Assembly (NCBI GenBank): GCA_964653365.1
Contig: CAZZER010000004.1
Location: 8,429-72,428 of the forward strand
Direction of reading: 5' to 3'
Source: an uncultured Candidatus Thioglobus sp.
Lineage (GTDB): Bacteria; Pseudomonadota; Gammaproteobacteria; PS1; Pseudothioglobaceae
Length of the DNA: 64,000 nt
The translations under genes and the position numbers were made by a program. Below are positions 10,205-43,973 of this stretch, piece by piece. The notes under the pieces are model-generated. The model saw nothing but the letters and a program-made list of their open reading frames with translations, ran no database searches and had not been told where the DNA came from. Position 1 is the stretch's first letter. Each line of letters starts with the position of its first letter.

Positions 10205-10208
10205 ATTT

Positions 10209-14726: not shown

Positions 14727-14779
14727 TTGACACACTAATGGGAAACATGATAAGATGCTCGAAACTCATATATATGAGT
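14727..14779 (+). promoter_or_regulatory. P(sat-apr): TTGACA(14727-14732)-18 nt-TAAGAT(14751-14756), followed 7 nt later by the 16-bp palindromic operator ACTCATATATATGAGT (14764-14779)
   Basis: Read directly. The architecture is nearly identical to 26877-26927 and, on the minus strand, to 25952-25894. Confidence 0.65.
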
Positions 14780-15006
14780 AATATAAAGAGTAATCTCAAT
14801 AAGATATAGCAAAGTTAAAGTCTTGGATCAATGGATTGAATAATCTGGCTCTAAAGATTCGGTTTGTGATAAGTAAGAACGTTTTACAATTGACAAGCTT
14901 TAAATGATTAACCCGATGCAAAAATAAATGAGAAGCCGTTTTAAGAAAAAAATAATCAAACTAAACCTTTGCGTTGATATGGCTCCCTTAAAGCCAAAAG
15001 TTGATT

Positions 15007-16215: not shown

Positions 16216-16273
16216 AAATGTAATAGCGATTTTTTAACGAAATTTATTATTTATTTAAGGAGAGATAAAAGAG

Positions 16274-17098: not shown

Positions 17099-17118
17099 TT
17101 AGATTAAGGAGAAAGATT

Positions 17119-21263: not shown

Positions 21264-22190
21264 TTATGCTTCTCTGCCATAGTATAAATTGACAACGTGT
21301 TTGGCTTCAGCAAAAAATAGCCATCTTTCCAACAGGGCGCCAAGGAAGCAAGTACATGTCGCACTAACTAATGTAACAAAATCAAAACCCTGTAACAAGC
21401 TGAATACTGGAAAAACTACCATCAAAATGAGAGAAGCATAACGAAGTACCTGCACTTTTTTTGCAGATACCTCAAAACCAAATTCACGCATTGAGAAGTT
21501 TTTGGCACTTTCACCCGTATGCAATAAGCGCACGGTTCTTGCAGAGAGACCTGTTGCTGTTTTGATACTTAGACCAGAGGGTTTGCCTATAAAGTAATAG
21601 TAAATGATTTTAGTAATAAGAACCAATGTGGGTAAAACAAGCAATATTTCAACGGGCATATTAGGCCCTTGATCAAAGAATTTGAAGATTGATAGGCATG
21701 CTAGGGAGCCAGAAAGTAGCCCAATTAATATGTAATTGCATGGTACTAGGGGTGAATTCCAGGCGCGAATAGTCTTAAGGCACGCATAAATCATTCCCGT
21801 TGAATAAATCGTGATTAATGAAATAGCCATGAGAGTAATTGCAATAGAACTAAACAACGTTTCGCTTGCTTCGAACAGATAGAATGAAGCGATAAAAATC
21901 AACGCGATAGGAAAACTTAACACCGCAAATACACCTTCTCTTGAAAGCCAAGATGAACGAAAACGCAAAAATGCTCGCCAAGCATTCTTTGGATTTGCCA
22001 AATGAAATGTTGATGAAATTAACCCCAGCACAACACAAAGTAAACCAAAGGACGTACTTGTGAATAGCGCATCAGAAAAGTGATTTACAGACTCTTTACT
22101 GAGCAGTGCAATTAACGCGGAGAAAACCAAAACGCCATATCCCATTCCTGAGGAGACCGTAAATAAGATAACTGAAAAAGCTGGATGCAT
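21264..22190 (-). CDS. soeC: DmsC/NrfD-like polytopic membrane anchor subunit, SoeC-like
   Basis: 308 aa, about 8 hydrophobic helices. Third gene of the molybdoenzyme operon. Confidence 0.6.
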   Translation of the reverse strand: MHPAFSVILFTVSSGMGYGVLVFSALIALLSKESVNHFSDALFTSTSFGLLCVVLGLISSTFHLANPKNAWRAFLRFRSSWLSREGVFAVLSFPIALIFIASFYLFEASETLFSSIAITLMAISLITIYSTGMIYACLKTIRAWNSPLVPCNYILIGLLSGSLACLSIFKFFDQGPNMPVEILLVLPTLVLITKIIYYYFIGKPSGLSIKTATGLSARTVRLLHTGESAKNFSMREFGFEVSAKKVQVLRYASLILMVVFPVFSLLQGFDFVTLVSATCTCFLGALLERWLFFAEAKHVVNLYYGREA

Positions 22191-22205
22191 AATTACTCCA
22201 ATTAG

Positions 22206-22898
22206 TTAGCGACTAATTAACTCATTCGCCCAGTTTTTAACTTGGCTAATGAGTGTTTTTGGTTTTTTGTCAATCTTGATATTGTTGGCAAGTCTTGGCG
22301 GTAAATATTGGTTTGTTGGGTTGTATCCAAGTTCACTCATTAAACCATCGCCATTTCTCTCACGAGTTAGCTTGCTAACATTCGAGTTAGGGTCATCGAA
22401 GTCGCCAAAATGGCGTGCACTGGTTGGGCAGGTCATAACACATGAGGGTTGGCGCTCAGCCTCTGGCAGTGATTCATCATAAATTCGATCAACACATAGG
22501 GTGCACTTTTTCATCGTGCCAGATTCTCTGTCTAGTTCTCTAGAGCCATAAGGGCAGGCCCATGCGCAATAATTGCAACCCATGCATTTGTCTTGGTCAA
22601 TTAAAACAATGCCATCGCTTTTGCGTTTGTAAGATGCACCTGTTGGACAAACAGTAACACAGGCGGCCTCTTCACATTGCATACAAGACATAGGGAAATT
22701 AACCGTTTTATCATGAGGGTAGTCGCCTTCTTCGTAAACACGAACACGGTTAAAAAAAACGCCCGAAGGATCTTTGTCATAAGGTTTATGATCGCTAAGT
22801 GAGCCTGTTGTTCCAGATGTGTTCCATTCTTTACAGGAAATGGCGCAAGCATGACAACCAACACAGGTGTCTAAATCAATAACTAATCCTAATCTCAT
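22206..22898 (-). CDS. soeB: 4Fe-4S ferredoxin-type electron-transfer subunit (DmsB-like), SoeB-like
   Basis: Cys clusters CVGCHACAISC, CMQCEEAACVTVCP, CMGCNYCAWACP and CTLC...C. Confidence 0.7.
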   Translation of the reverse strand: MRLGLVIDLDTCVGCHACAISCKEWNTSGTTGSLSDHKPYDKDPSGVFFNRVRVYEEGDYPHDKTVNFPMSCMQCEEAACVTVCPTGASYKRKSDGIVLIDQDKCMGCNYCAWACPYGSRELDRESGTMKKCTLCVDRIYDESLPEAERQPSCVMTCPTSARHFGDFDDPNSNVSKLTRERNGDGLMSELGYNPTNQYLPPRLANNIKIDKKPKTLISQVKNWANELISR

Positions 22899-22907
22899 AA
22901 TATCTCC

Positions 22908-25841
22908 TTAACGCGCTTTTTTGCCACGGGTTAATACGTCTTTTGTTGGGCGCACAATATTGACAGGGTCGTGAGTTTTGTATCTAAGAATGTCGGGTTG
23001 TAATGGTGCGTTAGGTATAGGCTTAATAGTGTCAAACTGCGGGAATGAAACCGGCGTTTGATCTTCAGCTCTTCGCACTTTGACTCGGGCGTCGTACCAA
23101 GCAGCTTGGCCAGTAATTGGGTCAGAATTTGTCAATTCTTTTCTGGAAGGTGAATTGGGTAACAATTCTGAAATTAAATGGTTAAGCAAAAAGCCTTTTT
23201 CCGATTCGTTAGAACCCGCTTTTAAGCCCCATGCGCCAGATTGCTTGCCAATAGCGTTCCAAGTCCAAACAGTGTGCTTTTCACAACCTTCCATCAACTT
23301 AGCTTGAACTTTAATTGCGCCACTTCTAGATTCGACCCATACCCAATCGTGCTCAGCAATACCCATCGATTCAGCGATTGTTCGATTAATATAAAGCCTA
23401 TTTTGAGCCATAATTTGACGCAACCAAGCGTTTTGTGAATCCCATGAGTGGTACATAAACATTGGTCTTTGAGTGGTGGTTGAGAAAGGATATTCATTTT
23501 CATCAATCATTTCCACCTCAAGAGGTTTGTAGTAACTTGGGCAGGGTGTAAAGTATTTGCTTAAACGTTCTTTATCAGTTTCGTTTGTGGGGCAAGGTCC
23601 GTCGTAAAGGCCCTTTCCAGCTAAGCGGAACTTTTGCAAGGTCTCTGAGTACAACTCCATGACAATGGGTTTGTCATTAAAATTTAAATGAGTCTCGGCT
23701 GCAAACTCAAGATACTCTTTATTAGCAAAACGATAGTACTTTTGTGAGTCCGGAATTTTGGTCTCGAAAAAACTTTCGTTTTCAATATATTTTTCCCACT
23801 GATCCGGGTTTGGCTCTCCAACAATACTTTTTTCACCGTTTTTACCTCTCCAGCCAGCTAAAAAACCTATTCCGGGGTGCTTTTCCCAATTGGTGATAAA
23901 TTCTTTGTAACCTGAGTATTTAGCGCTGCCATCCGCATTCGTGAATACGGGAAATTTTAACCTAGTGCCCAAGTCAACCATGACTTCTTGCCATGGCCTG
24001 ACATCGCGATCTAGTTCAACAATTGGGTGTCTGATTGAGTCAGCAATAACATGCGGCTCGGAAATAGGGCGGTCAAGGATAGAGATTGTGTCGAAGCGCT
24101 CTAGGTAGGTAGTGTCAGGCAGAATAAGGTCGCCAAAATTAACTGTTTCTGAGTGAAAAGTGTCCACAACCACCAAGTACGGAATTTTATATTCACCGTT
24201 TTCGTCTTTTTCTCGTAAAAGTTTTTGGGTGTCTCCGGGATTCATGCTTGAATTCCATGCCATATTCGCCATAAAGAAAATAAGCGTATCAATTGAGTAT
24301 GGATCTCCCTTTACTGCGTTGTTGACCACCATATGCATAAGGCCGTGGTTTGCAATGGGCGCTTCCCATGAATAGGCTTTATCAATTCTAAGTGGTTTTC
24401 CGCTCTTGTCGATACACAGATCTTCTGGACATGTAGGAAAGCCTAAAGGTGGTGTTTTTAAAGGCGTATTAGGCGACATCTCTTTTGCCGGTTTAATTGG
24501 CGGCGGTATCATTCTTGGGAAGGGAGGCTTTGCCAAGTGTGACCCCGGGCAATCAATGGCTCCTAACAGCACTTGCAAGATATGAATGGCGCGACAAGTT
24601 TGAAAGCCGTTCGAGTGTGCAGCGATACCACGCATCGCATGCATTGACACTGGTCTGCCAATAAATTTATCGTGTTTTCTGCCAGTCCAATCTGTCCATT
24701 CCGTTTCAATTTCTATGGTTTCTTGAAAAGCTACATGTGACATTTCTAAAGCATGTCTTTCGATATCTTCAACAGAGATACCAGTTTCTTTCTCAATCTT
24801 TTCTAAGCTGTATTCATCATCAAGGTAAGTTTCAACCAAAATAGTAAAAGAGGTTTTAACCATAAAACCTTCATCAGTTTGCCACTCACCAAATAAAGCA
24901 GGCTTTATATCTGCTTGACTCGCATCCACAAAGCTGTTTTCTTCAAGCTCCCAAGCCAGAGGCTTGCCTTCACTGTTTCGCCAAATAAGGCCGTCATTGC
25001 TTTGGCCTGGATTTTGAATAACCAAATGAGGCGCATTGGTGTAACGCACCAAAAATTCTTTGTCAAATTGATCGTTTTCAAGCAATACACGAGACATTCC
25101 TATTGCAAACAAGCCATCGGTTCCTGGTCGGATAGGAATCCACTCATCAGCAATAGCTTGGTAGCCAGTACGCACTGGGTTTACGGTGGCAAATTTAGCA
25201 CCATTTTTTTTCAGTTTTGAAAGACCGATTTTAATTGGATTTGACGAATGGTCTTCGGCTACACCCCAAAGCATAAAGTACTTGGTATTATCCCAATCAG
25301 GATCGCCAAACTCCCAAAATGACTGCCCTAATGTATAGAGACCCGCCGCCGCCATATTGACAGAGCAAAAGCCGCCGTGTGCAGACCAATTAAGCGTTCC
25401 AAATTGTTGTGCCCAAAGCCCCGTAAGCGCCTGCATTTGATCTCTGCCGGTAAAAAAAGCCAATTTTTTTGGGTCAGTATCACGGATTTTTTGTAAACGC
25501 TCTGTGAGTTCGTTCAGGGCTTCATCCCAGGATATAATCTCGAACTCCCCTGCACCTCTTTCTGTACCAGGCTTTCTGCGCATGGGAGAGTGGAGTTTAG
25601 CCATAGATTCATGCTTCATAATGCCAGCATTGCCTTTGGCACAAAGCACACCTTTGTTTATTGGGTGGTTGCGATTACCTTGTATGTAGCGAACTTTTTT
25701 CCCTTCAAGCGTCACTTTGATGCCACAACGGCAAGCACACATATAGCAAGTGGTTGTTTTTACTTCTTGATTTGATCTGTCTTCAAAAATCGGTAAAGGG
25801 TCTTCAAGATCAATATTTTGCGGGCATGTTTGTGTGCTCAT
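22908..25841 (-). CDS. soeA: Bis-MGD molybdopterin oxidoreductase catalytic subunit without a Tat signal, SoeA-like (cytoplasm-facing sulfite:quinone dehydrogenase)
   Basis: 977 aa. N-terminal FeS motif CYMCACRCG...C. There is no RRxF(L/K) motif in MSTQTCPQNIDLEDPLPIFEDRSNQEVKTTT. The three-gene A-B-C layout and sulfonate context fit SoeABC. Confidence 0.65.
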   Translation of the reverse strand: MSTQTCPQNIDLEDPLPIFEDRSNQEVKTTTCYMCACRCGIKVTLEGKKVRYIQGNRNHPINKGVLCAKGNAGIMKHESMAKLHSPMRRKPGTERGAGEFEIISWDEALNELTERLQKIRDTDPKKLAFFTGRDQMQALTGLWAQQFGTLNWSAHGGFCSVNMAAAGLYTLGQSFWEFGDPDWDNTKYFMLWGVAEDHSSNPIKIGLSKLKKNGAKFATVNPVRTGYQAIADEWIPIRPGTDGLFAIGMSRVLLENDQFDKEFLVRYTNAPHLVIQNPGQSNDGLIWRNSEGKPLAWELEENSFVDASQADIKPALFGEWQTDEGFMVKTSFTILVETYLDDEYSLEKIEKETGISVEDIERHALEMSHVAFQETIEIETEWTDWTGRKHDKFIGRPVSMHAMRGIAAHSNGFQTCRAIHILQVLLGAIDCPGSHLAKPPFPRMIPPPIKPAKEMSPNTPLKTPPLGFPTCPEDLCIDKSGKPLRIDKAYSWEAPIANHGLMHMVVNNAVKGDPYSIDTLIFFMANMAWNSSMNPGDTQKLLREKDENGEYKIPYLVVVDTFHSETVNFGDLILPDTTYLERFDTISILDRPISEPHVIADSIRHPIVELDRDVRPWQEVMVDLGTRLKFPVFTNADGSAKYSGYKEFITNWEKHPGIGFLAGWRGKNGEKSIVGEPNPDQWEKYIENESFFETKIPDSQKYYRFANKEYLEFAAETHLNFNDKPIVMELYSETLQKFRLAGKGLYDGPCPTNETDKERLSKYFTPCPSYYKPLEVEMIDENEYPFSTTTQRPMFMYHSWDSQNAWLRQIMAQNRLYINRTIAESMGIAEHDWVWVESRSGAIKVQAKLMEGCEKHTVWTWNAIGKQSGAWGLKAGSNESEKGFLLNHLISELLPNSPSRKELTNSDPITGQAAWYDARVKVRRAEDQTPVSFPQFDTIKPIPNAPLQPDILRYKTHDPVNIVRPTKDVLTRGKKAR

Positions 25842-25893: not shown

Positions 25894-25952
25894 ACTCATA
25901 TATATGAGTACATTCGGTGTTAATTTTACTTGGTTGTAAGTCTGCTTGGCAA
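25894..25952 (-). promoter_or_regulatory. P(soe): reading the minus strand, TTGCCA(25952-25947)-18 nt-TAAAAT(25928-25923), followed 13 nt later by ACTCATATATATGAGT (25909-25894)
   Basis: Read directly. Same palindrome and same 18-nt spacer as the other two promoters. Confidence 0.6.
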
Positions 25953-25989: not shown

Positions 25990-26709
25990 TTATTCTGGCA
26001 CACCAATAGTGGTTGTGTAACTGAACATATCAGCACGACCAGTTGTTATACGATATTCAACCAACCCTTTGCCTTTTGCATAAGAATGACGGTTTAGGAT
26101 AACAACAGGGTCTCCCTCATTAATATCAAGAATAGTAGCAGTTTTATTATCAGCAATGCTTGCAGTTAGTATTTCTTTAGATGAGGTAACATGGGTTCCA
26201 AATTGTTTGGATACCAATGCATATAACAAGTCTGGGATATGAACGCTAGATTTCTGCAAACCCTCAACTGTCTCAGCGATCCACCAAGATTTTTCAATTA
26301 TGATCGGGTGCTTTTTATCGATATATCCCATTCTTTCTAGGTAAATCACTTCGTCACCATGCTCAATTTCAAGTTGATGGCTGATTTCAGCGGTAGCAGA
26401 AATCTTTTTTCTAACCGGAGTTGTTTTATAGATGCGGATTGACGAGCCAGTGCTACTACCATAACTGAAAAAGTTAAACATACTATTGTCAAAGCCATAA
26501 TCCGAAACATAGGTGCCTTTACCATGATGGCGATAGAGTAATTTGTCTTGCTCAAGAATATCAATGGCCTTTCTGACTGTCCCAACACTGACGCCGAGTA
26601 ATTTTGACAGCTGTGATTCAGAGGGCACAAGGTCACCAACCATTAATTCACCACTAGTAATTCTATCCTTAATATGGTCAACTACAGTTTCGTAAAGTTT
26701 CTTTTTCAA
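25990..26709 (-). CDS. GntR-family transcriptional regulator, HutC subfamily (wHTH plus UTRA effector domain)
   Basis: 239 aa. N-terminal HTH ESQLSKLLGVSVGTVRKAIDILEQDKLLYRHHGKGTYV. The C-terminal ~160 aa have UTRA-like length and pattern. Confidence 0.8.
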   Translation of the reverse strand: MKKKLYETVVDHIKDRITSGELMVGDLVPSESQLSKLLGVSVGTVRKAIDILEQDKLLYRHHGKGTYVSDYGFDNSMFNFFSYGSSTGSSIRIYKTTPVRKKISATAEISHQLEIEHGDEVIYLERMGYIDKKHPIIIEKSWWIAETVEGLQKSSVHIPDLLYALVSKQFGTHVTSSKEILTASIADNKTATILDINEGDPVVILNRHSYAKGKGLVEYRITTGRADMFSYTTTIGVPE

Positions 26710-26876: not shown

Positions 26877-26927
26877 TTGACAACCTGTAAGTTGCCATGG
26901 TAAGATGCATCACTCATATATATGAGT
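26877..26927 (+). promoter_or_regulatory. P(tct): TTGACA(26877-26882)-18 nt-TAAGAT(26901-26906), followed 5 nt later by ACTCATATATATGAGT (26912-26927)
   Basis: Read directly. It lies in the divergent region between the GntR gene and tctA. Confidence 0.65.
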
Positions 26928-26974: not shown

Positions 26975-28486
26975 ATGGAATATTTCGTATTTTTAGACTA
27001 CTTTGATAACGTTTTTACTTGGTATCACTTAGCACTACTTATTGGCGGTACATTTGCTGGAATTGTTTTGGGAGCATTGCCTGGCCTTAGCCCAACTATG
27101 TCTGTTGCTCTTCTTATTCCATTTACTTTCCATATGGAGCCAGCTAGTGGCCTAATTTTGTTAGGTGCTATGTACACAGCCACTGTAGCTGGTGGCGCGA
27201 TTAGTGCTATCTTGGTGAATGTGCCTGGCGCACCGGCTAATATTGCTACGGCTATGGATGGTCATAAACTAGCAAAGCAAGGCAAGGCAAAAGAAGCTCT
27301 TCACTATTGCTTTATGTCGTCATTTGTTGGCGGTATATTTGGTGTTATTATTCTAATTTTCTTTACCCCACCTTTGGCTGAATGGTCGCTAAAATTTGGC
27401 ACGACAGAGCTTTTTTGGGTTGCGATTTTAGGTATTACCATCATTGCAACAATTGACTCGAATTCTGTTGTCAAAGGCCTTTTATCAGGCCTTTTTGGTT
27501 TGATATTGGCGACAGTGGGTGACAATCCGGTTCTTGGCGTTGAAAGATTTGTGGTCTCAGATCACCTTACCGGCGGTGTTAATATTGTTGTTGGTTTGAT
27601 TGGTTTGTTCGCAATGCCACAAGTCCTAAGCCTGATGGAGGGTTATTATAAAGACAAACACGATGTATTAGAAGCCACAGGTTCTTCCACTTTGCTTCAA
27701 TCATTTAGGTATGTACTTAGCCGTATTAAAGCGTTGTCAATTGGATCTGTCGTTGGCTCTTTGATTGGCATCATCCCAGGTGCTGGCGGACAAATAGCGG
27801 GCCTAGTTTCCTACGATCAGACAAAAAAAGTAAGTAAAGTCCAGGACAATTACGGCAAGGGTGAGCCAGAAGGTGTTGTCGCAGCTGAAAGCGCAAACAA
27901 TTCGATGGTTGGGCCTTCTTTAATTCCGTTATTAACTTTGAGTATTCCAGGCAGCCCTACAGCAGCGGTTTTGTTGGGTGGTCTTCTTATTCATGGTATT
28001 TTTCCTGGCCACGAAATTTTTGTGTCAGAAAATACTAAAGAAGTGGTTTGGACATTTATTGATTCTTTAATTCTTGCGCAAGTGTTCATGCTTATTATTG
28101 GTCTTTTCCTAAGCAGACATAGTGGCTGGATTATGAAAGTACCTGACAACTATATGGCTGTCGGTATTTTTGTTTTGGCAGTTTTTGGTACTTATAGTAT
28201 CGGTAACTCGTATTCAGATGTGTTGATCATGGTTACTTTGGGCACTGTAATGTTTTTTGCCAGTAAGGCAGGTTTTAGCGCTGTACCTGTTGTGTTGGGT
28301 ATTATTTTGGGTCCAATTGCTGAGAATAACTTTTTATTGGGTAAATTAATTGGCGGTGCAAAATATCAAGGTGATTGGTGGCTGTACTTTGTTCGCGATT
28401 CTCTCAATATAACTTTGATTGCAATCTGTTTACTTTCAATCGCATGGGGTGTTTACTCCACAACAAAATCTAAGAATAAATCTTAA
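26975..28486 (+). CDS. tctA: Tripartite tricarboxylate transporter (TTT) large permease, TctA family
   Basis: 503 aa, highly hydrophobic. TctA-like pattern GALPGLSPTMSVALLIPFTF..., ...IIPGAGGQIAGLVSYDQ..., ...LSIPGSPTAAVLLGGL. Confidence 0.8.
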   Translation: MEYFVFLDYFDNVFTWYHLALLIGGTFAGIVLGALPGLSPTMSVALLIPFTFHMEPASGLILLGAMYTATVAGGAISAILVNVPGAPANIATAMDGHKLAKQGKAKEALHYCFMSSFVGGIFGVIILIFFTPPLAEWSLKFGTTELFWVAILGITIIATIDSNSVVKGLLSGLFGLILATVGDNPVLGVERFVVSDHLTGGVNIVVGLIGLFAMPQVLSLMEGYYKDKHDVLEATGSSTLLQSFRYVLSRIKALSIGSVVGSLIGIIPGAGGQIAGLVSYDQTKKVSKVQDNYGKGEPEGVVAAESANNSMVGPSLIPLLTLSIPGSPTAAVLLGGLLIHGIFPGHEIFVSENTKEVVWTFIDSLILAQVFMLIIGLFLSRHSGWIMKVPDNYMAVGIFVLAVFGTYSIGNSYSDVLIMVTLGTVMFFASKAGFSAVPVVLGIILGPIAENNFLLGKLIGGAKYQGDWWLYFVRDSLNITLIAICLLSIAWGVYSTTKSKNKS

Positions 28487-28487: not shown

Positions 28488-28940
28488 ATGAAGCCCCAAA
28501 TCAAACTTTCCACTATTGTTGTCACATTACTTACCATTGGTTTACTGATAATCTCCTTTGACGAGGTTCTCAACCCGAACAAATGGACTGAAAACGAAGA
28601 CTACCTATTCCCACGATTTGTAGCTTGTGGAATCGCATTTTTGACTCTACTCTTATTTTTTGATCAAACAAAAAATAAAAAAACCCTATTAAAAGACTTA
28701 TTGCCAGGCCTGGGCTTAATAATTGTCTACCTTGTCGTCATGAAAACCATTGGTTTTTATGTGACCTCCCTAATTATGTTCTTCGCAGTTGTGATGATTT
28801 ATCAAAAGCGTGAAGAATCTACTGACTTTTGGCGTGCGAGCATTTATAAACTCGCAATATCAATAGTTTTTACAGTTGTACTGTACTTGCTATTTACTGT
28901 GTTATTGAATGTTTACCCGCCAAAGGGGTTGTTTTTATAA
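28488..28940 (+). CDS. tctB: TTT small membrane subunit, TctB family
   Basis: 150 aa from ATG 28488, one nt after the tctA stop. Four hydrophobic helices. Located between tctA and tctC. Confidence 0.65.
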   Translation: MKPQIKLSTIVVTLLTIGLLIISFDEVLNPNKWTENEDYLFPRFVACGIAFLTLLLFFDQTKNKKTLLKDLLPGLGLIIVYLVVMKTIGFYVTSLIMFFAVVMIYQKREESTDFWRASIYKLAISIVFTVVLYLLFTVLLNVYPPKGLFL

Positions 28941-28963: not shown

Positions 28964-29923
28964 ATGAAAATTAAACAATTAACAAAAGTTGCATTACTTG
29001 CAGCGGCATCAATGATGGCGTTTCAAGCTTCTGCAGCATACCCTGATGGTAAGCCAATCGGTACTATGGTTGCTTATGGTCCGGGCGGTGCGACAGACTT
29101 CCAAGCACGTATTGCAACTTTAGCAGCGGGCAAAGAGGCGTTTATTGGCTCGCCAATTTACATCGTTAATAAGCCGGGTGCTGGTGGTCGTACTGGTTGG
29201 AACTGGTTCGCTAGTGAGGCGCCTAAAGATGGCTTTATGCTTGCTGCATACAATGTGCCGCATTTCATTGCCCAATCAATCGTATTTGACACTGCATACA
29301 ATATCGATACTTTGGAGCCATTAGGTAACTGGGGTGCAGATCCTGCGGTATTAATCGTGGGTAAAGATAGCCCTTTCAATACAGTTGAAGAGTTACTTGC
29401 ACACGCTGATGCAAATCCTGGTGCTGTAACAATCAGTGGTGCTGGTAAATTTGTTGGTCACCATATTGCATACTTGCAGTTTGCAAAAGCCTCCGGCAAA
29501 GACATGACATACATCCCAGCTAAGGGCGGTGTTGATGCTCTTAGAATGGTTAAAGCGGGTGAAGTATCAGCTGGATTTAACAACTTGTCTGACTCTGCAA
29601 GAAGTGCTGCTGATCTTAAGATCTTAGCTGTTGCAGACCTTACAAGACATGAATACCTTCCAGATGTTCGCACATTAATGGAAGCTGGTGTTGATGTAGA
29701 TGATTCAAGTGTTAACTTCCGTGGATTGATGGTTCCTGCTGGAACACCTCAAGACGTTATCGATTACCTAGCAAGCAAAGTGCCTGCTATGTTTAACGAT
29801 AAGAAGACACAGGGCAAGATGAAGTCGACTAACTCTCCTTCTCGTATCATGAGTAGAGATGAAGTCGTTTCCATGTGGTCAGAAAGACAAGCTTACTTGA
29901 CTGAGCTACTAGCTGGTCTTTAA
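28964..29923 (+). CDS. tctC: TTT periplasmic substrate-binding protein, TctC/Bug family
   Basis: 319 aa. Signal peptide MKIKQLTKVALLAAASMMAFQASA. Bug-family pattern VNKPGAGGRTGWN. Confidence 0.8.
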   Translation: MKIKQLTKVALLAAASMMAFQASAAYPDGKPIGTMVAYGPGGATDFQARIATLAAGKEAFIGSPIYIVNKPGAGGRTGWNWFASEAPKDGFMLAAYNVPHFIAQSIVFDTAYNIDTLEPLGNWGADPAVLIVGKDSPFNTVEELLAHADANPGAVTISGAGKFVGHHIAYLQFAKASGKDMTYIPAKGGVDALRMVKAGEVSAGFNNLSDSARSAADLKILAVADLTRHEYLPDVRTLMEAGVDVDDSSVNFRGLMVPAGTPQDVIDYLASKVPAMFNDKKTQGKMKSTNSPSRIMSRDEVVSMWSERQAYLTELLAGL

Positions 29924-30007: not shown

Positions 30008-32914
30008 ATGAAATCCAAAACCGATTCCTTGATTGATGAATTAATCAGTCGAGCCAGAATAGCTCAATCCATAATTAATGATTTTTCTCAGGAACAAATC
30101 GATGAAATGCTCCTAGCTGTTGCATGGGAGGTTATCAAACCTGAAAACAATCACCCTTTGTCCGAAATGGCTGTAGAGCACACAGGCTGTGGCAAGGTAG
30201 AAGACAAAATGCGAAAGAATCAGCGCAAAACAATGGGTTTGCTTCGCGATTTAAAAGATGTTAATACTGTTGGTATTATTAATGAAGATACTGATAATGG
30301 AATAATAGAGATAGCAAAACCGGTTGGCGTTATTGGTGCGATAGCACCCTCAACCAATCCAATTGCAACACCACTCAATAAAACCATTAATGCACTCAAA
30401 TGCCGCAACGCAATTATTCTTGCACCTTCACCAAAAGGTGCTGTAGTTTGTCAAAAAGTGGTCTCACTTATGCAAGATGCTTTACGTAGAGTTGGCGCGC
30501 CTGTTAATTTAGTGCAAGCGCTACCTATGCCAATAAGTAAAGAAAATACCAATGAATTAACCGAGAAAGTTGACTTGGTGGTTGCAACCGGCTCACAAAA
30601 CAATATTAAAAGGGCGTTGGCCACAGGAACACCAACCTTGGGCGTGGGTGTTGGCAATGTACCTTCTATCATTGATGATAGTGCAGACTTAGCTGATGCT
30701 GCAGCAAAAATAAAAGCATCAAAAACTTTTGATAATGCCACCAGCTGCTCATCAGAAAATAGCGTTGTTATTCTTGATTCGATATATCAAAAAACATTAG
30801 ATGCACTTTCTGCCGAGGGTGGTGTATTGCTTAACGAGAAAGAAAAAACATCTCTTTGTGAGCAAATGTGGGACGAAAATCACGTTATTAATCGCAATAT
30901 CATTGCCAAGAGATCGGCTGAAATTGCTCGATTAGTTGGTTTTGAGAAACAAAAATTTGAATCTTCAGAGTTTCTAATGGTCGAAGAAACAGGAATCGGC
31001 AAAGATTATCCTTTTTCTATGGAAAAGCTTTCACCCATATTAACAGTCTATCGTGCACAGGATTTTGACGATGCTGTTCGCCTGACTACCAAAATTCTTA
31101 AAAACCAAGGCCAAGGACACTCGTGCAGCATCCACAGTAAAACGGATGCTAATATTGACAGGCTTGGTCTTGAATTGCCTGTATGCCGTGTCATCGTTAA
31201 TCAGGCACACTGTTTTGCTACTGGTGGTAATTTCGATAATGCCTTGCCATTTTCACTGTCAATGGGTTGTGGCACCTGGGGGAATAATGTTTCAGGTGAA
31301 AACTTAAACTACAAACAATACCTCAACATAACCAAAATTGTAAGAACTATTAAGCCTAATGAGCCAACTGAAGAAGAGCTTTTTGGTGAGTACTGGGAAA
31401 AACACCTGCTACCAAATTCAAAGACAATTACAAACTTTGTAGATAAGTTTGCATTAAGCACACCAGAAAAAACTTATCTGATAGAAGCTGACACTGACAA
31501 CCATATTAGCTACAAACAACTCAAAGACGATATTCTAAAACTGGGATCTTACTTTAACCAAAACTCGATTAAACCTGGAGATAAAGTGGGTTTTTTATTG
31601 GACAACAGTTACCCAACAACGCTCTTATTTTTAGGGGCAATGTACCATGGAGTTATCGTTGTTCCAGTTAACATTGTTGCAGGCAAAACGCAGATTCAGT
31701 ACACAATAGAGCATTCTGGCTGTAAGAAATTGTTCGTCTCTGCCGACTATATAGAGAAGTTTAGCGATATTCTTACCGAGGTCAGTGCTGAAACAATAAA
31801 GTACGAAACTCTAAATGATCTTGGTAGCTTAGTAGCCTCAAATAAAGCTCCGGATTTAACTTCTGAAACACCTGGCGTATTAATATATACCTCGGGCACT
31901 ACTGGAGTCCCTAAAGGAGTGCTTCTTAATCATGGCAATGTTTTAGCAGGCGGGGAAAATACTGCTATCGCGCACCAAATTGATAGCGACGATATTTCTT
32001 TATGTGTACTACCACTTTATCATATTAATGCCGAAATGGTTTCTGTTTCATCCGCTTTGGTTAGCAACAGTTGTGTGGTAATGATGAGCAAGTTTAGTGT
32101 TTCCAATTTTTGGCAAACCATTGAACAGTATCGATGCACGTGGTTTAGTGTTGTGCCAACGATTATCAACTATCTAATTGGTGATGATTGTGATGTCTCT
32201 AAATTGGACTTGAGTTGCGTCCGCTTTGGCCGCTCTGCCTCTGCACCTCTTTCGCCGGAAGTTCATAAAAACTTTGAGAAAATTTTCAATGTTCATCTTG
32301 TTGAGACAATGGGGTTGACTGAAACTTCTGCGCAAATATTGTCCAATCCACTTGGTAATCGCAAGCACGGCTCTGCAGGCATTGCATACGGCAATGAAGT
32401 GCGAGTTGTTAATGATGCAGGTGAATACGTGAAACCGGGCGAGATTGGTGAGTTGGTCATCAAAGGCAACAACGTTATGCATGGTTACTATAATAATGAA
32501 GAGGCTACAAAATCAGCATTTAATGATGATGGATATTTACTCACTGGAGATCTTGGCCGTGAAGACGATGAGGGCTTCTTTTATATTACCGGCAGGACAA
32601 AAGAGTTGATTATTAAAGGTGGTGAAAATATTTCTCCACGGGAGATTGATGATGCGCTCTATCAGCACAATGCCATCCTTGAAGCATGTGCTTTTGGCGT
32701 GCCTGATGACAATTACGGAGAAGAGATTGCAGCCTTTGTATTGCTAAAAGACAATTGCCAAACCAATGAAGAAGAGCTTAAAGAGTTATGCATTTCATTG
32801 CTGGGTAATTTTAAAACACCTAGTCGAATAGTATTTGTTGACGAGCCACTTCCAAAAGGGCCGTCCGGCAAGATTCAGCGCTTAAAAATTGCCGAAAGTT
32901 ATTCACAAAACTAA
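30008..32914 (+). CDS. Bifunctional fusion: N-terminal CoA-acylating aldehyde dehydrogenase (SauS-like) and C-terminal AMP-forming acyl-CoA ligase (SauT-like)
   Basis: aa 1-~445 match EutE/PduP/AdhE-N-type motifs: KPVGVIGAIAPSTNPIATPLNK, GVGVGNVPSIIDDSADL, and the catalytic-Cys context KTFDNATSCSSENSV. aa ~470-968 match adenylate-forming ligase motifs: LIYTSGTTGVPKGVLLNH, TGDLGREDDEGFFYITGRTKELIIKGGENISPREID, PKGPSGKIQR. It is a single uninterrupted 968-codon ORF. Confidence 0.7.
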   Translation: MKSKTDSLIDELISRARIAQSIINDFSQEQIDEMLLAVAWEVIKPENNHPLSEMAVEHTGCGKVEDKMRKNQRKTMGLLRDLKDVNTVGIINEDTDNGIIEIAKPVGVIGAIAPSTNPIATPLNKTINALKCRNAIILAPSPKGAVVCQKVVSLMQDALRRVGAPVNLVQALPMPISKENTNELTEKVDLVVATGSQNNIKRALATGTPTLGVGVGNVPSIIDDSADLADAAAKIKASKTFDNATSCSSENSVVILDSIYQKTLDALSAEGGVLLNEKEKTSLCEQMWDENHVINRNIIAKRSAEIARLVGFEKQKFESSEFLMVEETGIGKDYPFSMEKLSPILTVYRAQDFDDAVRLTTKILKNQGQGHSCSIHSKTDANIDRLGLELPVCRVIVNQAHCFATGGNFDNALPFSLSMGCGTWGNNVSGENLNYKQYLNITKIVRTIKPNEPTEEELFGEYWEKHLLPNSKTITNFVDKFALSTPEKTYLIEADTDNHISYKQLKDDILKLGSYFNQNSIKPGDKVGFLLDNSYPTTLLFLGAMYHGVIVVPVNIVAGKTQIQYTIEHSGCKKLFVSADYIEKFSDILTEVSAETIKYETLNDLGSLVASNKAPDLTSETPGVLIYTSGTTGVPKGVLLNHGNVLAGGENTAIAHQIDSDDISLCVLPLYHINAEMVSVSSALVSNSCVVMMSKFSVSNFWQTIEQYRCTWFSVVPTIINYLIGDDCDVSKLDLSCVRFGRSASAPLSPEVHKNFEKIFNVHLVETMGLTETSAQILSNPLGNRKHGSAGIAYGNEVRVVNDAGEYVKPGEIGELVIKGNNVMHGYYNNEEATKSAFNDDGYLLTGDLGREDDEGFFYITGRTKELIIKGGENISPREIDDALYQHNAILEACAFGVPDDNYGEEIAAFVLLKDNCQTNEEELKELCISLLGNFKTPSRIVFVDEPLPKGPSGKIQRLKIAESYSQN

Positions 32915-32917: not shown

Positions 32918-34720
32918 AACTAATTTATAACAGGAGAATCAAAAATGACAAGAATGACCTCAAGTGAGGCCTTTGTAGAAACAATGGTTGCCAATGGTGT
33001 TAAAGACATCTTTGGTATTATGGGCTCTGCCTTTATGGATGCTATGGACATCTTTGAACCGGCAGGCATTCGCCTTATCCCAGTGGTACACGAGCAGGGT
33101 GCTGGTCACATGGCAGACGGCTATGCTCGCGTTAGTGGCAAGCACGGTGTTGTGATTGGCCAAAATGGCCCGGGTATCTCTAATTGTGTAACTGCCATTG
33201 CAGCTGCTTATTGGGCACACTCTCCAGTGGTTATCATTACCCCTGAGGCTGGCACTATGGGCATGGGTCTTGGTGGCTTCCAAGAAGCTAACCAGCTACC
33301 AATGTTCCAAGAGTTTACTAAGTACCAAGGGCACGTTTGTAACCCAATGCGTATGGCTGAGTTTACTGGTCGTTGCTTTGACCGTGCCATGAGTGAAATG
33401 GCGCCAACACAGCTTAACATTCCAAGAGACTACTTCTACGCCGATGGTGAGTTCACTATCCCACAACCAAGAAGAATCGACCGTGGTACTGGTGGTGAAG
33501 AATCTCTTAACGATGCCGTTAACCTCATTGCGCAAGCGCAGTTCCCAGTAATTGTCTCTGGTGGTGGTGTAGTCATGGCCGATGGTGTTGACGAGTGTAA
33601 GGCACTTGCTGAGCGCTTAGGTGCGCCAGTAGTTAACTCTTATCTACATAATGACTCCTTCCCAGCTAGCCATGAACTATGGTGTGGTCCACTCGGTTAC
33701 CAAGGCTCTAAGGCTGGTATGAAGCTAATTGCTCAAGCCGATGTTGTAATCGCCTTAGGTACGCGTTTAGGACCTTTTGGCACATTGCCTCAACATGGTA
33801 TGGATTACTGGCCAAAAGACGCCAAAATCGTACAAATTGACGCCGACCATAAGATGCTTGGTTTGGTTAAATCAATTACTGTTGGTATTTGTGGTGATGC
33901 TAAAGCGGTTGCTGAAGCACTCACTGCCAAACTGGCAACAGCAGATCTTGCTTGTGATGCCAGCAAAGCTGAAAGAGCGGAAAAAATCGCTCAAGAGAAA
34001 GCCGACTGGGAAAAAGAATTGGATGAATGGATCCATGAAACTGACCCATACAGCCTAGACATGATTGAAGACCTTGAAGAGGGTTGGTTACACCCAAGAC
34101 AAGTTTTGCGTGAGCTTGAGAAGGCAATGCCTGAAGATGTGATGGTATCAACTGATATTGGCAACATCAACTCGGTGGCTAACAGCTACTTACGTTTTGA
34201 GAAGCCAAGAAGCTTCTTCGCACCAATGAGCTTTGGTAACTGTGGTTATGCGCTACCAACCATTATCGGTGCTAAAGCAGCAGCCCCTCACCGTCCAGCT
34301 GTCTCATACGCAGGTGATGGCGCTTGGGCCATGAGCATGGTAGAAACCATGACTTGTGTACGTCACGACATTCCTGTTACAGCTGTGGTCTTCCACAACT
34401 GCCATTGGGGTGCTGAGAAGAAGAACCAAGTAGACTTCTACGACAGACGCTTTGTTGCCGCTGAACTAACAGATCAACACTTTGTCAACATTGCTGAATC
34501 AATGGGTGCCGAAGGCATCCGTGTGGACAAACTTGAAGAGGTTGGTCCAGCGCTTAAAAAAGCCATTGACATGCAAATGAACGAAGGCAAAACAACCATC
34601 ATTGAAATCATGTGTACGCGTGAATTGGGTGACCCGTTCCGTAAAGATGCATTGAGCAAACCGGTGCGTTACTTGCCGAAGTACAAAGACTATGGTGTGA
34701 ATCAGCAGCATAGGTAGAAA
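32918..34720 (+). repeat. Copy 2 of the 1803-bp perfect direct repeat
   Basis: See copy 1. Offset is exactly 20100 nt. Confidence 0.9.
32945..34717 (+). CDS. xsc: Sulfoacetaldehyde acetyltransferase (ThDP-dependent), copy 2
   Basis: The 590-aa translation is identical to copy 1. It is followed by pta, the classical xsc-pta pairing. Confidence 0.8.
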   Translation: MTRMTSSEAFVETMVANGVKDIFGIMGSAFMDAMDIFEPAGIRLIPVVHEQGAGHMADGYARVSGKHGVVIGQNGPGISNCVTAIAAAYWAHSPVVIITPEAGTMGMGLGGFQEANQLPMFQEFTKYQGHVCNPMRMAEFTGRCFDRAMSEMAPTQLNIPRDYFYADGEFTIPQPRRIDRGTGGEESLNDAVNLIAQAQFPVIVSGGGVVMADGVDECKALAERLGAPVVNSYLHNDSFPASHELWCGPLGYQGSKAGMKLIAQADVVIALGTRLGPFGTLPQHGMDYWPKDAKIVQIDADHKMLGLVKSITVGICGDAKAVAEALTAKLATADLACDASKAERAEKIAQEKADWEKELDEWIHETDPYSLDMIEDLEEGWLHPRQVLRELEKAMPEDVMVSTDIGNINSVANSYLRFEKPRSFFAPMSFGNCGYALPTIIGAKAAAPHRPAVSYAGDGAWAMSMVETMTCVRHDIPVTAVVFHNCHWGAEKKNQVDFYDRRFVAAELTDQHFVNIAESMGAEGIRVDKLEEVGPALKKAIDMQMNEGKTTIIEIMCTRELGDPFRKDALSKPVRYLPKYKDYGVNQQHR

Positions 34721-34783
34721 AACATCCTGAGGTTATGTTTCTAGCCTCTTCTCCATATGGGTAGGTTGATGGCTACCAAACCA

Positions 34784-34811
34784 AAGCAGGGCTAATATAG
34801 CCCTGCTTTTT
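34784..34811 (+). terminator. Strong hairpin plus T-run between xsc copy 2 and pta
   Basis: aagcagggcta / tagccctgctt form an 11-bp stem around a 3-nt loop, followed by a T-run through 34811. It lies 36 nt upstream of the pta ATG. Confidence 0.65.
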
Positions 34812-34847: not shown

Positions 34848-35843
34848 ATGACATCACTAGATAAACTGACGATTAATGCAAGGCAGAACTGTCCAAGAAT
34901 TTTATTACCCGAATCCACTGATGACAGGGTTTTAAAAGCAGCTTTATTGATAGATGAACAACGTCTTGCTCAAGTTGTCCTACTGGGTGATAAAAAACGA
35001 GTAAATCTCAAACTTTCGCAACTAGGCAGTACTGAAAACACTTCTATTGAATTTATTGACTCTGATGATGTATTGATGCAGCAAGATTATGCTCATACTT
35101 TGTATGAGTTGCGTAAGAGCAAAGGTTTGAGCCTTGAAGAGGCAACTGATTTTGTTAAACAAGGCGTCGTGTTTGCCATGCTTGCTCTGCAACGTGGCGA
35201 AGTCGATGGCATAGTGACTGGCGCCATCACACCAAGCCAACAGGTCTTGAGCAACGCATTGAAAATTGTTGGTGTTGCCCCAGGATCACGGTTGGTTTCC
35301 AGTTTCTTTTTGATGTTATTTGATGAAAATCATCAAAAGTACGGCAGTGAAATGTTGTTCTCCGATTGTGCAATGAATATCAACCCAAGCGCTGAAAACT
35401 TGGCCGAGATAGCAAAAAGCACCATCCGCTCTGCCAATGATCTTTTAGGAATAAAACCTAAAGTTGCCATGCTTTCCTTTTCAACAAATAAAAGTGCTGA
35501 ACATGAGCAGGTTGAGAAGGTGAGTCAAGCAACCAGTTTGTGTCATAAGGCAAACTTGAATGCTGATATTGTTGGCAACATTCAATTAGATGCTGCGCTT
35601 GATAACGAGGTGCTGAATCTTAAATTTCCAGAGACATCTTTTGTTGCGCCTGCCAATGTATTGATTTTCCCAACCTTAGACGCAGGAAATATCGGCTACA
35701 AGCTTGTTCAGAGATTTTCAGGTGCAGATGCTGTTGGGCCAATACTGCAAGGTTTAGAAAAACCAGTAAATGACTTATCAAGAGGTTGTAGTGTTGATGA
35801 GATCGTCAACACCGTTATTATTACTGCCAATCAATGCGCTTAG
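34848..35843 (+). CDS. pta: Phosphate acetyltransferase (short PTA_PTB form)
   Basis: 331 aa. N-terminus ...CPRILLPESTDDRVLKAA... and C-terminal ...FPTLDAGNIGYKLVQR... are typical of Pta. Lies downstream of xsc. Confidence 0.85.
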   Translation: MTSLDKLTINARQNCPRILLPESTDDRVLKAALLIDEQRLAQVVLLGDKKRVNLKLSQLGSTENTSIEFIDSDDVLMQQDYAHTLYELRKSKGLSLEEATDFVKQGVVFAMLALQRGEVDGIVTGAITPSQQVLSNALKIVGVAPGSRLVSSFFLMLFDENHQKYGSEMLFSDCAMNINPSAENLAEIAKSTIRSANDLLGIKPKVAMLSFSTNKSAEHEQVEKVSQATSLCHKANLNADIVGNIQLDAALDNEVLNLKFPETSFVAPANVLIFPTLDAGNIGYKLVQRFSGADAVGPILQGLEKPVNDLSRGCSVDEIVNTVIITANQCA

Positions 35844-41873: not shown

Positions 41874-42320
41874 ATGTCTGCCCAAGCAAACAATAAACAC
41901 TGGTCAAGTATTAACGCTGTTCCAGTATTGCACTTAACATTAAAAAAAAACAATCAGCATTTTGTTGTTTTAGAAGGAGTTAGCGACGAAGTGTTGGAGG
42001 TCGGACTTGGTAGATTATCTGCCAGTTACTTTCCCTCAGATTCAGGCACTGTTGTCATTTATGTCAGTCAATCATTTAATTTTTTACAAAATTTACAACT
42101 TAACGATCAAATTATTCTAAACGAACAAAAAGGAGGGCAGTTTAATTATGCCGTTTGCAAAATGGAAATTATCGACATAAAAGACAACCCTATCAATATT
42201 CAGGAAGATATTGACGAGTTAAAGCTGTTCACGGCTTGGCCGTTTGGTTCAGATAAAGATCAAACCACTCTTAGATATATTGTTCACTTAACTCAACTTA
42301 GCAAACCTGCTTTGCATTAG
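41874..42320 (+). CDS. Sortase-fold-like protein lacking the catalytic His and Cys and lacking a membrane anchor
   Basis: 148 aa. From memory of sortase family motifs: VLEGVSDEVLEVGLGRL resembles v.EG.s...L..GpGH; TVVIYVSQSFNFLQNLQLNDQIIL resembles n.viaGHRdt.F..L..L..GD.I.l; LKLFTAWPFGSDKDQTTLRYIVHL resembles LtLvTC.PF.......RyvV.a. Confidence 0.4.
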   Translation: MSAQANNKHWSSINAVPVLHLTLKKNNQHFVVLEGVSDEVLEVGLGRLSASYFPSDSGTVVIYVSQSFNFLQNLQLNDQIILNEQKGGQFNYAVCKMEIIDIKDNPINIQEDIDELKLFTAWPFGSDKDQTTLRYIVHLTQLSKPALH

Positions 42321-42842: not shown

Positions 42843-43973
42843 ATGGATTTAATCAAAGCACTTTCGATTGTTGGCGATGAGTTGTTAATTGATTGGCACG
42901 ATGGCATGCAGAGTCGTCTATATAGCCACTGGTTGCGCGATCATTGCCAAATGCCAACTTCTCGTAATTCGGCCAACGGTCAGCGCCTGCTCAGTGTAAT
43001 AGAAATTCCACAGGACACTTTTATTGAGAAAGTTGAGCAAGATAAAGACGGCAATGTGCGTGCACTCTTTCAACCAGAAAACCATTTATCCGTTTTTACC
43101 GAACAATGGTTGAGAGATAATTGTTATAACCTGAATCAACAATTTGATGATCGAAGTGCAGTAAATAAGAAACTGTGGCAAAAGAGTAGCTTTTCGGGCA
43201 ACCTGCCAAGAGTTGATTTTGATGATATGCGCAAAACCAAGCAAGGAAAAATTGACGCCTTGACGTGCGTTAGAGATTTTGGTTTTTGCATCTTGGAAAG
43301 TGTGCCTTGTATTGAAGGACAAGTGCTGAAAGTAATTGCAAAAATAGGATTTACCCGCGAAACAAATTACGGCGCAATCTTTGAGGTACGCACCGAGGTA
43401 AACCCAAATAATCTTGCTTATACAAATATGGGGCTCGGATCGCATACCGACAATCCATACCGCGACCCAGTGCCCACCGTACAATTATTACACTGCCTAG
43501 AAAGCTCGACAGAGGGTGGCGATTCAGTACTTGTTGATGGCTTTCAAGCTGCGCAAGTTTTGCGTGAAGAAAGCCCAAAAAATTTTGAAACCTTGGCTAA
43601 TACATGGATAAATTTTCGGTTTTCTGATGAAAAGACCGATCTACATTCTCGCGTGCCAATGATTGAGGTCAACGATAAAAACGAAGTGATTAAAGTCAGG
43701 TACAACAACCGCTCCATTGATACCATTAAGCTGCCCTTTGAAAAAATTCGTGATTATTATCAAGCCTATCGTCATTGGGGGGAAATTATTGAAAGGGAGG
43801 ATTTAAAGGTGACTTTTAAGTTAACGCCTGGAGACCTAATGCTGTTTGACAACACACGAGTTATGCATGCCAGAACTGCTTTTTCAAAGGATGGTAAGCG
43901 CCATTTGCAAGGAGCTTATACCGACTTAGATGGCTTATACAGCCTTTTAAATGTATTGGAAAAAGACCCGTAA
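42843..43973 (+). CDS. Fe(II)/2-oxoglutarate dioxygenase of the gamma-butyrobetaine-hydroxylase/TauD family (TmpA- or PhnY*-like)
   Basis: 376 aa. N-terminal DUF971-like domain LIDWHDGMQSRLYSHWLRDHC. Facial-triad context GSHTDNPY (HxD) and ...NTRVMHARTAF. Confidence 0.7.
   Translation: MDLIKALSIVGDELLIDWHDGMQSRLYSHWLRDHCQMPTSRNSANGQRLLSVIEIPQDTFIEKVEQDKDGNVRALFQPENHLSVFTEQWLRDNCYNLNQQFDDRSAVNKKLWQKSSFSGNLPRVDFDDMRKTKQGKIDALTCVRDFGFCILESVPCIEGQVLKVIAKIGFTRETNYGAIFEVRTEVNPNNLAYTNMGLGSHTDNPYRDPVPTVQLLHCLESSTEGGDSVLVDGFQAAQVLREESPKNFETLANTWINFRFSDEKTDLHSRVPMIEVNDKNEVIKVRYNNRSIDTIKLPFEKIRDYYQAYRHWGEIIEREDLKVTFKLTPGDLMLFDNTRVMHARTAFSKDGKRHLQGAYTDLDGLYSLLNVLEKDP

Follow-up and report, generated by a model that had tools for sequence, protein, structure and literature searches.

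In this study, we analysed a stretch of 64,000 nucleotides from an uncultured Candidatus Thioglobus sp. (GenBank assembly GCA_964653365.1, contig CAZZER010000004.1, positions 8,429 to 72,428), which is called the window here, and focused on one open reading frame (ORF) at positions 30008-32914 of its forward strand. This ORF begins with ATG and encodes a single polypeptide of 968 aa. Taking the evidence as a whole, the best explanation is that it is a natural end-to-end fusion of SauS, the acylating sulfoacetaldehyde dehydrogenase, with SauT, the AMP-forming ligase that joins sulfoacetate to CoA, and it is very probable that the fused protein would convert sulfoacetate to sulfoacetaldehyde.

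The initial annotation of this stretch, which was made from the letters alone, had described an uninterrupted frame with the motifs of both enzymes, and both descriptions hold. The frame runs from the ATG to its end with no stop inside. The context of the catalytic Cys is found at aa 239-251, KTFDNATSCSSEN, which contains Cys247, while the P-loop YTSGTTGVPKG lies at aa 627-637 (nt 31886-31918), GDLG...GRTKELIIKGGENISPREID at aa 847-881, and PSGKIQR at aa 952-958, with the motif-A10 Lys955 at nt 32870-32872. The Pfam search of the ORF gave Aldedh at aa 4-403, AMP-binding at aa 480-828, and AMP-binding_C at aa 879-955. Based on these data, the ORF is divided on the forward strand into a predicted SauS domain (aa 1-465, 30008-31402, with Cys247 at nt 30746-30748), a junction of four residues, HLLP (residues 466-469, 31403-31414), and a predicted SauT domain (aa 470-968, 31415-32914). 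The limits of the first domain follow the NCBIfam match and the alignment with SauS of Caballeronia, those of the second follow Pfam, the alignment with Caballeronia SauT and the best plasmid matches, and the junction was placed by alignment with four unfused SauS/SauT pairs and is in frame in 11 fusions. The GC content is equal across the two halves, being 0.399 in the N half and 0.402 in the C half.

Assignment of the two halves

The N half was matched by the NCBIfam model NF047625 for acylating sulfoacetaldehyde dehydrogenase with 705.9 bits against a cutoff of 600, which is a match at the equivalog level, and the alignment spans aa 6-465, corresponding to positions 3-461 of the 464 in the model. 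Models of related enzymes stayed far under their cutoffs. The AdhE model NF010378 reached 382.6 bits against 951 and covered aa 3-446 only, with no C-terminal iron alcohol dehydrogenase domain, and the model for EutH-type acetaldehyde dehydrogenase reached 349.3 bits against 620.1. In the BLASTP comparison, SauS of Caballeronia was 52% identical to residues 2-465 (477 bits). Cys247 in TSCSSEN was invariant in the 11 fusions and aligned with the same motif of Caballeronia SauS. The earlier proposal of a SauS in this half is thus upheld, and the curated hidden Markov model (HMM) together with the homology to cluster proteins supports a SauS-type acylating sulfoacetaldehyde dehydrogenase. The closest solved structures to this half are acetylating aldehyde dehydrogenases and AdhE. 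Membership in the AdhE family was considered and rejected, as the score was 382.6 against 951 bits and the C half is an AMP-binding protein.

The C half carries the Pfam domains AMP-binding (254 bits) and AMP-binding_C (59 bits). The motifs of ANL enzymes, namely the P-loop YTSGTTGVPKG, TGD, GRxKELIIKGGENISPREID, and PSGKIQR with Lys955, were invariant or nearly so among the 11 aligned fusions. No SauT model was matched, and therefore genomic context was used to identify this half. The tblastn search of the whole fusion against 72,556 plasmids returned 11 records in which an aldehyde dehydrogenase gene is followed by an adjacent ligase gene, and these gene pairs jointly cover at least 96% of the fusion at 44-46% identity. 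The plasmid cluster of Caballeronia sp. NK8 has the order IclR regulator, aldehyde dehydrogenase, AMP-binding protein, and major facilitator superfamily (MFS) transporter, which we take to be the sauRSTU layout of Cupriavidus necator H16. The cluster of Ruegeria sp. THAF33 consists of a LacI regulator, tctABC, and a sauS-sauT pair, and in Sulfitobacter alexandrii the sauS-sauT pair is followed by tctCBA. In every unfused cluster examined, the gene order sauS-sauT was the same as the N-to-C order of the fusion, as had been claimed.

When the C half alone was compared with the plasmids, 11 of the 12 top matches were ligases adjacent to sauS (39-42% identity, 361-403 bits), and the twelfth adjoins an aliphatic sulfonate ABC transporter. 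After these 12 ligases, the scores fell clearly, to at most 279 bits and at most 34% identity. Caballeronia SauT aligned with residues 470-964 of the ORF at 39% identity and 403 bits (BLASTP), and a Paraburkholderia protein that is 67% identical to this Caballeronia ligase is labelled 'putative sulfoacetate--CoA ligase' by its source. C. necator was absent among the best 120 matches of Caballeronia SauT. For the C half, the nearest solved structures are those of two enzymes of small anionic acids, oxalate-CoA ligase and malonyl-CoA synthetase. Taken together, the data support a SauT-type AMP-forming ligase that is probably orthologous to the ligases encoded directly after sauS, in agreement with the earlier suggestion. 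Both halves group with sulfonate enzymes and not with propionaldehyde dehydrogenases or fatty-acyl ligases.

The ligase of the SauT clade on a plasmid of Deltaproteobacteria bacterium Smac51 (locus L015, 5492-9500) is 40% identical to the C half, and its neighbours are genes of an aliphatic sulfonate ABC transporter. The annotated part of this locus shows no sauS, although the PLSDB gene table is incomplete.

Integrity and origin of the fused gene

The fused gene is real and conserved. Two independent assemblies, the ENA scaffold ERZ23498828 (74 kb) and the JGI contig 3300013116, encode the identical 968-aa protein. In a collection of 5.8 billion proteins, the best 120 matches were all 965-980 aa long, all carried the three Pfam domains, and were 67-99% identical to the ORF. 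They included proteins on 1.71-1.77 Mb contigs of Ca. Pseudothioglobus singularis, a cultured bacterium, and of Ca. Pseudothioglobus sp. Uisw_086. In marine metagenomes the fused gene occurs often, forming many 90%-identity clusters with up to 573 members each.

The initial annotation had raised the concern of a frameshift or a stop at the junction, to be settled by read mapping. Compared with the four unfused pairs, HLLP stands in place of the final 2-3 residues of SauS and the first few of SauT; SauS aligns through residue 465, and the alignment with SauT begins at residue 470. The sauS stop overlaps the sauT start in each of these four pairs, by ATGA in Caballeronia, Ruegeria, and Sulfitobacter, and by 14 nt in the metagenomic locus L017. 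With overlaps of 4-14 nt, one base error could join the two genes, and the ORF might then be a sequencing or assembly artefact of an organism that truly has separate sauS and sauT. We consider this explanation extremely improbable. The junction peptide is conserved over the 11 aligned fusions, the indels in this region are whole codons only, and the residues on either side of the junction are unlike the termini of the unfused proteins. Because identical copies come from independent assemblies, all 120 best matches are full-length fusions (some on the large Ca. Pseudothioglobus contigs), and the junction indels keep the frame, an artefact is excluded for practical purposes and that explanation is already effectively refuted. 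The concern about the junction is thereby answered without reads.

Among 1.84 billion 50%-identity representatives, searched exhaustively with HMMER, only one other protein matched over the full length, P0121 (967 aa, 63% identity). The remaining best matches were stand-alone SauS-like proteins, stand-alone ligases, or multi-module proteins of the non-ribosomal peptide synthetase type. The closest stand-alone ligase (P0123/P0272, 56% identity) sits in the tctABC-sauS-sauT locus L017. In neighbour-joining trees of each half, the fusions formed one clade that was sister to the unfused pair of L017, with the same internal branching order in both trees, and the group of fusions and L017 was nested among SauS or SauT proteins of Roseobacter and Burkholderiaceae. 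The data fit one fusion within a tctABC-sauS-sauT operon, after which the joined gene was inherited vertically. The fusion would have arisen once, in a marine lineage of gammaproteobacteria to which Ca. Pseudothioglobus belongs, by the joining of overlapping sauS and sauT genes. It counts against this history that the trees are rough and carry no bootstrap support.

The protein P0214 (971 aa) was considered as a fusion of reverse order and rejected as unrelated, since in this haloarchaeal protein the partner of the aldehyde dehydrogenase is an LLM-flavin oxidoreductase. In Halorussus spp. such proteins (969-975 aa) have an N-terminal LLM-class flavin oxidoreductase and a C-terminal SauS-like domain, which is 39% identical to the N half of the ORF.

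Operon, regulator, and substrate

The locus has the order GntR/HutC-type regulator, tctA, tctB, tctC, fusion, xsc, hairpin, and pta, and the neighbours named in the initial annotation, a tripartite tricarboxylate transporter (TTT) upstream and Xsc and Pta downstream, were all recovered by Pfam and NCBIfam. On the forward strand, tctA (26975-28486; Pfam TctA, 428.6 bits) encodes a SauX-like large permease of the TctA family, tctB (28488-28940; Pfam TctB) a SauY-like small membrane subunit, and tctC (28964-29923; Pfam TctC) a SauZ-like periplasmic binding protein. The gene call for tctB on the identical contig L006 agrees with ours, and TctC shares 58% identity with its counterpart in the Ruegeria tctABC-sauS-sauT cluster. 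The three tct genes adjacent to sauS and a ligase, that is, the SauXYZ-type arrangement, were found in the window and in the loci L008, L009, L011, and L017. Sulfoacetaldehyde acetyltransferase is encoded by xsc (32945-34717, forward strand), which starts 30 bp after the fusion; no hairpin was found in that gap. This is the second of two xsc copies in the window, both of which exceed the TIGR03457 cutoff of 676.4 at 1036.5 bits. Between xsc and pta lies a terminator-like hairpin (34783-34809, forward strand) with a perfect 12-bp stem, 100% complementary in the repeat search, and a 3-nt loop, followed by a T run; the consensus terminator scan did not list it. The gene for phosphate acetyltransferase, pta, follows at 34848-35843 on the same strand (TIGR00651, 336.6 bits against 311.2).

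It had been proposed that the TTT system takes the place of the MFS importer SauU. The transporter genes are indeed present, but this replacement is not new, as SauXYZ has already been published as a sulfoacetate importer (PMC10413351). In Bilophila wadsworthia, the binding protein SauZ binds sulfoacetate with a Kd of 0.13 µM and does not bind isethionate or 3-sulfopropanoate, and SauZ homologues adjoin SauT, SauS, and Xsc in alpha- and gammaproteobacteria (PMC10413351). Hybrid TTT-sauST clusters have also been reported in sponge symbionts (PMC12625764).

The core of regulator, tctABC, and fusion is kept in three other lineages, namely Ca. P. singularis PS1 (L008), the P0005 lineage (L009), and the P0003 lineage (L011), and in L011 xsc and pta are arranged as in the window. 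The flanking genes for electron transfer flavoprotein (ETF), ETF-quinone oxidoreductase, and two-component proteins are syntenic with P. singularis, so the host is probably related to Ca. Pseudothioglobus, within the SUP05 / ARCTIC96BD-19 group. The most divergent fusion locus, L019, contains tctA fragments, tctB, tctC, and the fusion, with xsc and pta about 2 kb downstream, and no GntR gene is listed there. At 6421-8785 of this locus, tctA is split into two calls of 144 and 284 aa, and the short tctB call has 99 aa; either the transporter has decayed there or the assembly contains sequencing errors.

The regulator gene (25990-26709, reverse strand) is divergent from the operon and occupies the same position in L008, L009, and L011. 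Its product contains the Pfam domains GntR, a winged helix-turn-helix, and UTRA, an effector domain, and is a candidate repressor. Upstream of tctA lies a promoter-like site, TTGACA-18-TAAGAT with TG before the second hexamer (26877-26906, forward strand), which is a consensus match only (10/12). The claim of a palindromic operator upstream of the fusion also found its counterpart in the sequence. A perfect 16-bp palindrome, ACTCATATATATGAGT, is located at 26912-26927, 6 bp past the promoter-like site and before tctA, and is a putative operator. The window contains three exact copies, compared with an expectation of 0.2 matches even at a tolerance of 3 mismatches. The second copy (25894-25909) lies 52 bp upstream of the start of a SoeA-like gene on the reverse strand and is kept in L011, and the third (14764-14779) lies past a TTGACA...TAAGAT site upstream of sat. 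Before tctA, the palindrome is exact in L009, has 1 mismatch in L011, and is present as two adjacent copies with 1-2 mismatches in L008. Neither L019 nor the unfused locus L017 contains it, and it is also missing in two LacI-regulated Roseobacter loci, L014 and L016.

The operons behind the two further copies are predicted to oxidise sulfite. The first (21264-25841, reverse strand) encodes a molybdopterin protein of 977 aa, an Fe-S protein of 230 aa, and a DmsC/NrfD-type membrane protein of 308 aa according to their domain matches. From the subunit sizes and the context, and with no specific model behind the label, we take it to be a SoeABC-like cytoplasmic sulfite:quinone oxidoreductase (sulfite dehydrogenase). 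No twin-arginine motif was found at the N-terminus of the SoeA-like catalytic subunit. The second (15001-19442, forward strand) comprises sat, a 274-aa ORF, aprB, and aprA, the adenosine 5'-phosphosulfate (APS) route from sulfite to sulfate; in NCBIfam, sat (516.7 bits), aprB (195.8 bits), and aprA (1015.4 bits) all scored above their cutoffs. The 274-aa ORF between sat and aprB (16274-17098) had no Pfam match and might be a membrane anchor for APS reductase. We propose that the divergent GntR/HutC protein probably represses the tct-sauST operon through the palindrome at its promoter, and that it may likewise repress the two sulfite-oxidation operons. The same palindrome precedes all three, which suggests a common regulator linking sulfoacetate catabolism with both routes of sulfite oxidation.

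The operon also bears on the question of substrate. Several points weigh against sulfoacetate. NCBIfam has no curated SauT model, and every ligase model falls under its cutoff on the C half. The orthology of both halves is based on a curated HMM, on cluster architecture, and on the structure of the best hits, and not on the characterised sequences of C. necator or B. wadsworthia, and the function of the fused protein and its homologues is predicted from homology and context. Moreover, in L008 pta directly follows the fusion with no xsc within 10 kb, and in L009 neither xsc nor pta adjoins it, so that completion of the pathway in these two lineages would depend on an xsc elsewhere. If the adjacency of xsc were incidental, the protein could act on another small anionic acid, converting malonate to malonate semialdehyde, oxalate to glyoxylate, succinate to succinate semialdehyde, or reducing 3-sulfopropanoate. 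The ligases of known structure nearest to the C half, those for oxalate and malonate, and the presence of an acetylating succinate-semialdehyde dehydrogenase among the best structural matches of the N half would agree with this, as would the missing SauT model and the two lineages in which xsc is not adjacent. On the other hand, the N half passes the SauS equivalog model while the AdhE and EutH-type models fail, both halves nest among proteins of sauS-sauT clusters, and xsc lies so close downstream with no hairpin found between. In addition, the operator of this operon recurs before two sulfite-oxidation operons, and the published SauZ-type binding protein rejects 3-sulfopropanoate and isethionate (PMC10413351). 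We therefore regard a different substrate as improbable, and sulfoacetate remains the preferred one.

The xsc gene is found twice in the window, at 12845-14617 and at 32945-34717, 20.1 kb apart and in direct orientation. The DNA of the copies is 100% identical over 1803 bp, consisting of 27 bp upstream with the ribosome-binding site, the coding sequence, and 3 bp after it. The GC content of xsc is 47.8%, against about 40% in its neighbours, and the independent contigs L007 and L012 break off some 100 bp into xsc, which is typical of assembly at repeats. The identical copies result from either a recent duplication or gene conversion. The first copy ends a taurine-type module (8732-14617), which contains a MocR-family regulator (8732-10204, reverse strand), a Tpa-like class-III aminotransferase (10318-11679), and an alanine dehydrogenase (11704-12819). 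With this module and the sau operon, the window is a sulfonate island that converges on sulfoacetaldehyde.

Two other features were observed in the window. A cobalamin riboswitch aptamer (57184-57247, reverse strand) scored 32.1 bits, just above the Rfam gathering threshold of 31.5, and lies upstream of a 585-aa ORF (55322-57079, reverse strand). A gamma-butyrobetaine hydroxylase-like or TauD-family dioxygenase is encoded at 42843-43973 on the forward strand, downstream of a small sortase-domain ORF (41874-42320).

Predicted route and relation to known systems

In the proposed route, sulfoacetate would be imported by TctABC, the SauXYZ-type transporter. The C-terminal ligase would adenylate it and transfer it to CoA, giving sulfoacetyl-CoA, AMP, and PPi, and the N-terminal domain would then reduce the thioester with NAD(P)H through a thioester intermediate on Cys247, releasing sulfoacetaldehyde and regenerating CoA. 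Xsc would split sulfoacetaldehyde into acetyl phosphate and sulfite, Pta would yield acetyl-CoA, and the sulfite would be oxidised by the SoeABC-like enzyme and by AprBA/Sat. For the fused enzyme, the net reaction would be sulfoacetate + ATP + NAD(P)H to sulfoacetaldehyde + AMP + PPi + NAD(P)+. CoA would be catalytic in this reaction because the dehydrogenase domain releases it again.

The arrangement resembles known systems in part. Like the fusion, sauRSTU of C. necator H16 has S before T, and a Caballeronia cluster of the same layout encodes proteins 39-52% identical to the fusion halves. However, C. necator H16 has two polypeptides where the window has one, an IclR-type regulator in place of a GntR/HutC-type one, and the MFS importer SauU in place of a TTT transporter, and the window differs from its sauRSTU locus also in having xsc and pta in the same locus. 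The clusters of B. wadsworthia and of alpha- and gammaproteobacteria are closer in transport, with a TTT importer and a SauZ-type protein beside SauS and a CoA ligase, as in the window. Aerobes with TTT-SauT-SauS clusters desulfonate through Xsc, as proposed here, whereas Bilophila uses an ADP-forming SauCD ligase and the isethionate/IseG route. Unfused TTT-sauST examples are those of Ruegeria, Sulfitobacter, and the metagenomic locus L017, and in the published clusters (PMC10413351, PMC12625764) SauS and SauT are treated as separate proteins, whereas the window fuses them.

Among fused enzymes, AdhE is similar in that an N-terminal acylating aldehyde dehydrogenase of the same family is joined to the enzyme of a neighbouring step. 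Its partner is an iron alcohol dehydrogenase acting after the aldehyde dehydrogenase step, whereas the partner in the fusion is an ANL ligase acting before it. Carboxylic acid reductases (CARs), which consist of adenylation, carrier, and reductase domains, are a functional analogy only. As in a CAR, one polypeptide would turn a carboxylate into an aldehyde via a thioester, using ATP (to AMP and PPi) and NAD(P)H. Unlike in a CAR, the proposed thioester carrier is free CoA and the reductase has the aldehyde dehydrogenase fold with a catalytic Cys. Pfam showed on the fusion no phosphopantetheine carrier domain and no SDR-type reductase domain. CAR family membership was rejected, as only Aldedh, AMP-binding, and AMP-binding_C were found. 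Propionyl-CoA synthase of the 3-hydroxypropionate bi-cycle is a ligase-dehydratase-reductase fusion that sequesters CoA-ester intermediates. It is similar in joining an AMP-forming CoA ligase to the consumers of its CoA-ester, but its partner domains and domain order differ from those of the fusion.

The likely benefits of the fusion would be a fixed 1:1 stoichiometry of the two activities and a short-range hand-over of sulfoacetyl-CoA. In ANL enzymes, the small C-terminal subdomain rotates between the two half-reactions. The C-terminal placement of SauT would leave this subdomain free, which, speculatively, may be why the S-T order is tolerated. Channelling of sulfoacetyl-CoA is a plausible proposal. 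The structure prediction from the 11-sequence alignment (mean predicted local distance difference test score of 60, predicted template modelling score of 0.43) was too poor to define the linker or the packing of the domains.

The same chemistry could also take place with no channelling. The fusion would then only fix a 1:1 expression and save a translation start in small streamlined genomes, while sulfoacetyl-CoA mixes with the bulk pool of CoA-esters. This is a serious candidate to which we would give a little less than an even chance. The junction of about four residues contains no dedicated linker or extra domain, the poor structure prediction yielded no evidence of a shared chamber, and the named hosts have small genomes, on contigs of 1.71-1.77 Mb. 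Furthermore, the unfused sauS and sauT genes overlap and are probably translationally coupled, so that a fusion would be a small step needing no new function. On the other side, the fusion has stayed whole in hundreds of sequence clusters and down to an identity of 63%, which suggests some benefit and does not indicate which one. In addition, sulfoacetyl-CoA and SauT were reportedly described as labile by Weinitschke et al. in 2010, and this would favour a direct hand-over. A stronger form of the fusion reading is that the protein is a self-contained CoA-dependent 'sulfoacetate reductase', in which the thioester, and perhaps CoA itself, passes from the ligase site to the dehydrogenase site with no release, so that sulfoacetyl-CoA is protected. 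In this form, the fusion would mark sulfoacetate as a quantitatively important source of carbon and energy for the abundant heterotrophic SUP05 / ARCTIC96BD-19 clade, with its expression tied to sulfite oxidation through one regulator. We put this forward tentatively, as a possible but rather unlikely combination.

Earlier publications cover the pathway and its two enzymes as well as the TTT importer and the hybrid type of cluster, while the fused architecture is apparently undescribed. In text searches of PMC10413351 and PMC12625764, a SauS-SauT fusion did not come up. In the literature searched, which leaves most subscription journals outside so that an earlier mention is possible, we found no description of the fusion and no link of Thioglobus or Pseudothioglobus to sulfoacetate. 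In RefSeq and IMG, proteins of this architecture carry names of one half or generic COG names; the RefSeq name is 'acylating sulfoacetaldehyde dehydrogenase', which covers the N half only, and elsewhere the name is 'aldehyde dehydrogenase family protein'. Because current names cover one half only, pipelines that look for separate sauS and sauT may score the pathway as incomplete.

SauT is a poorly characterised step, and the fused SauS-SauT would offer a one-protein system for the study of sulfoacetate activation, its reduction, and the hand-over of the CoA-ester. It might also be used as a compact catalyst that turns an acid into an aldehyde with ATP and NAD(P)H. The fusion is found in metagenomes and in the cultured Ca. 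Pseudothioglobus singularis, and it gives a specific and testable prediction of a substrate, sulfoacetate, for an abundant clade of the ocean.

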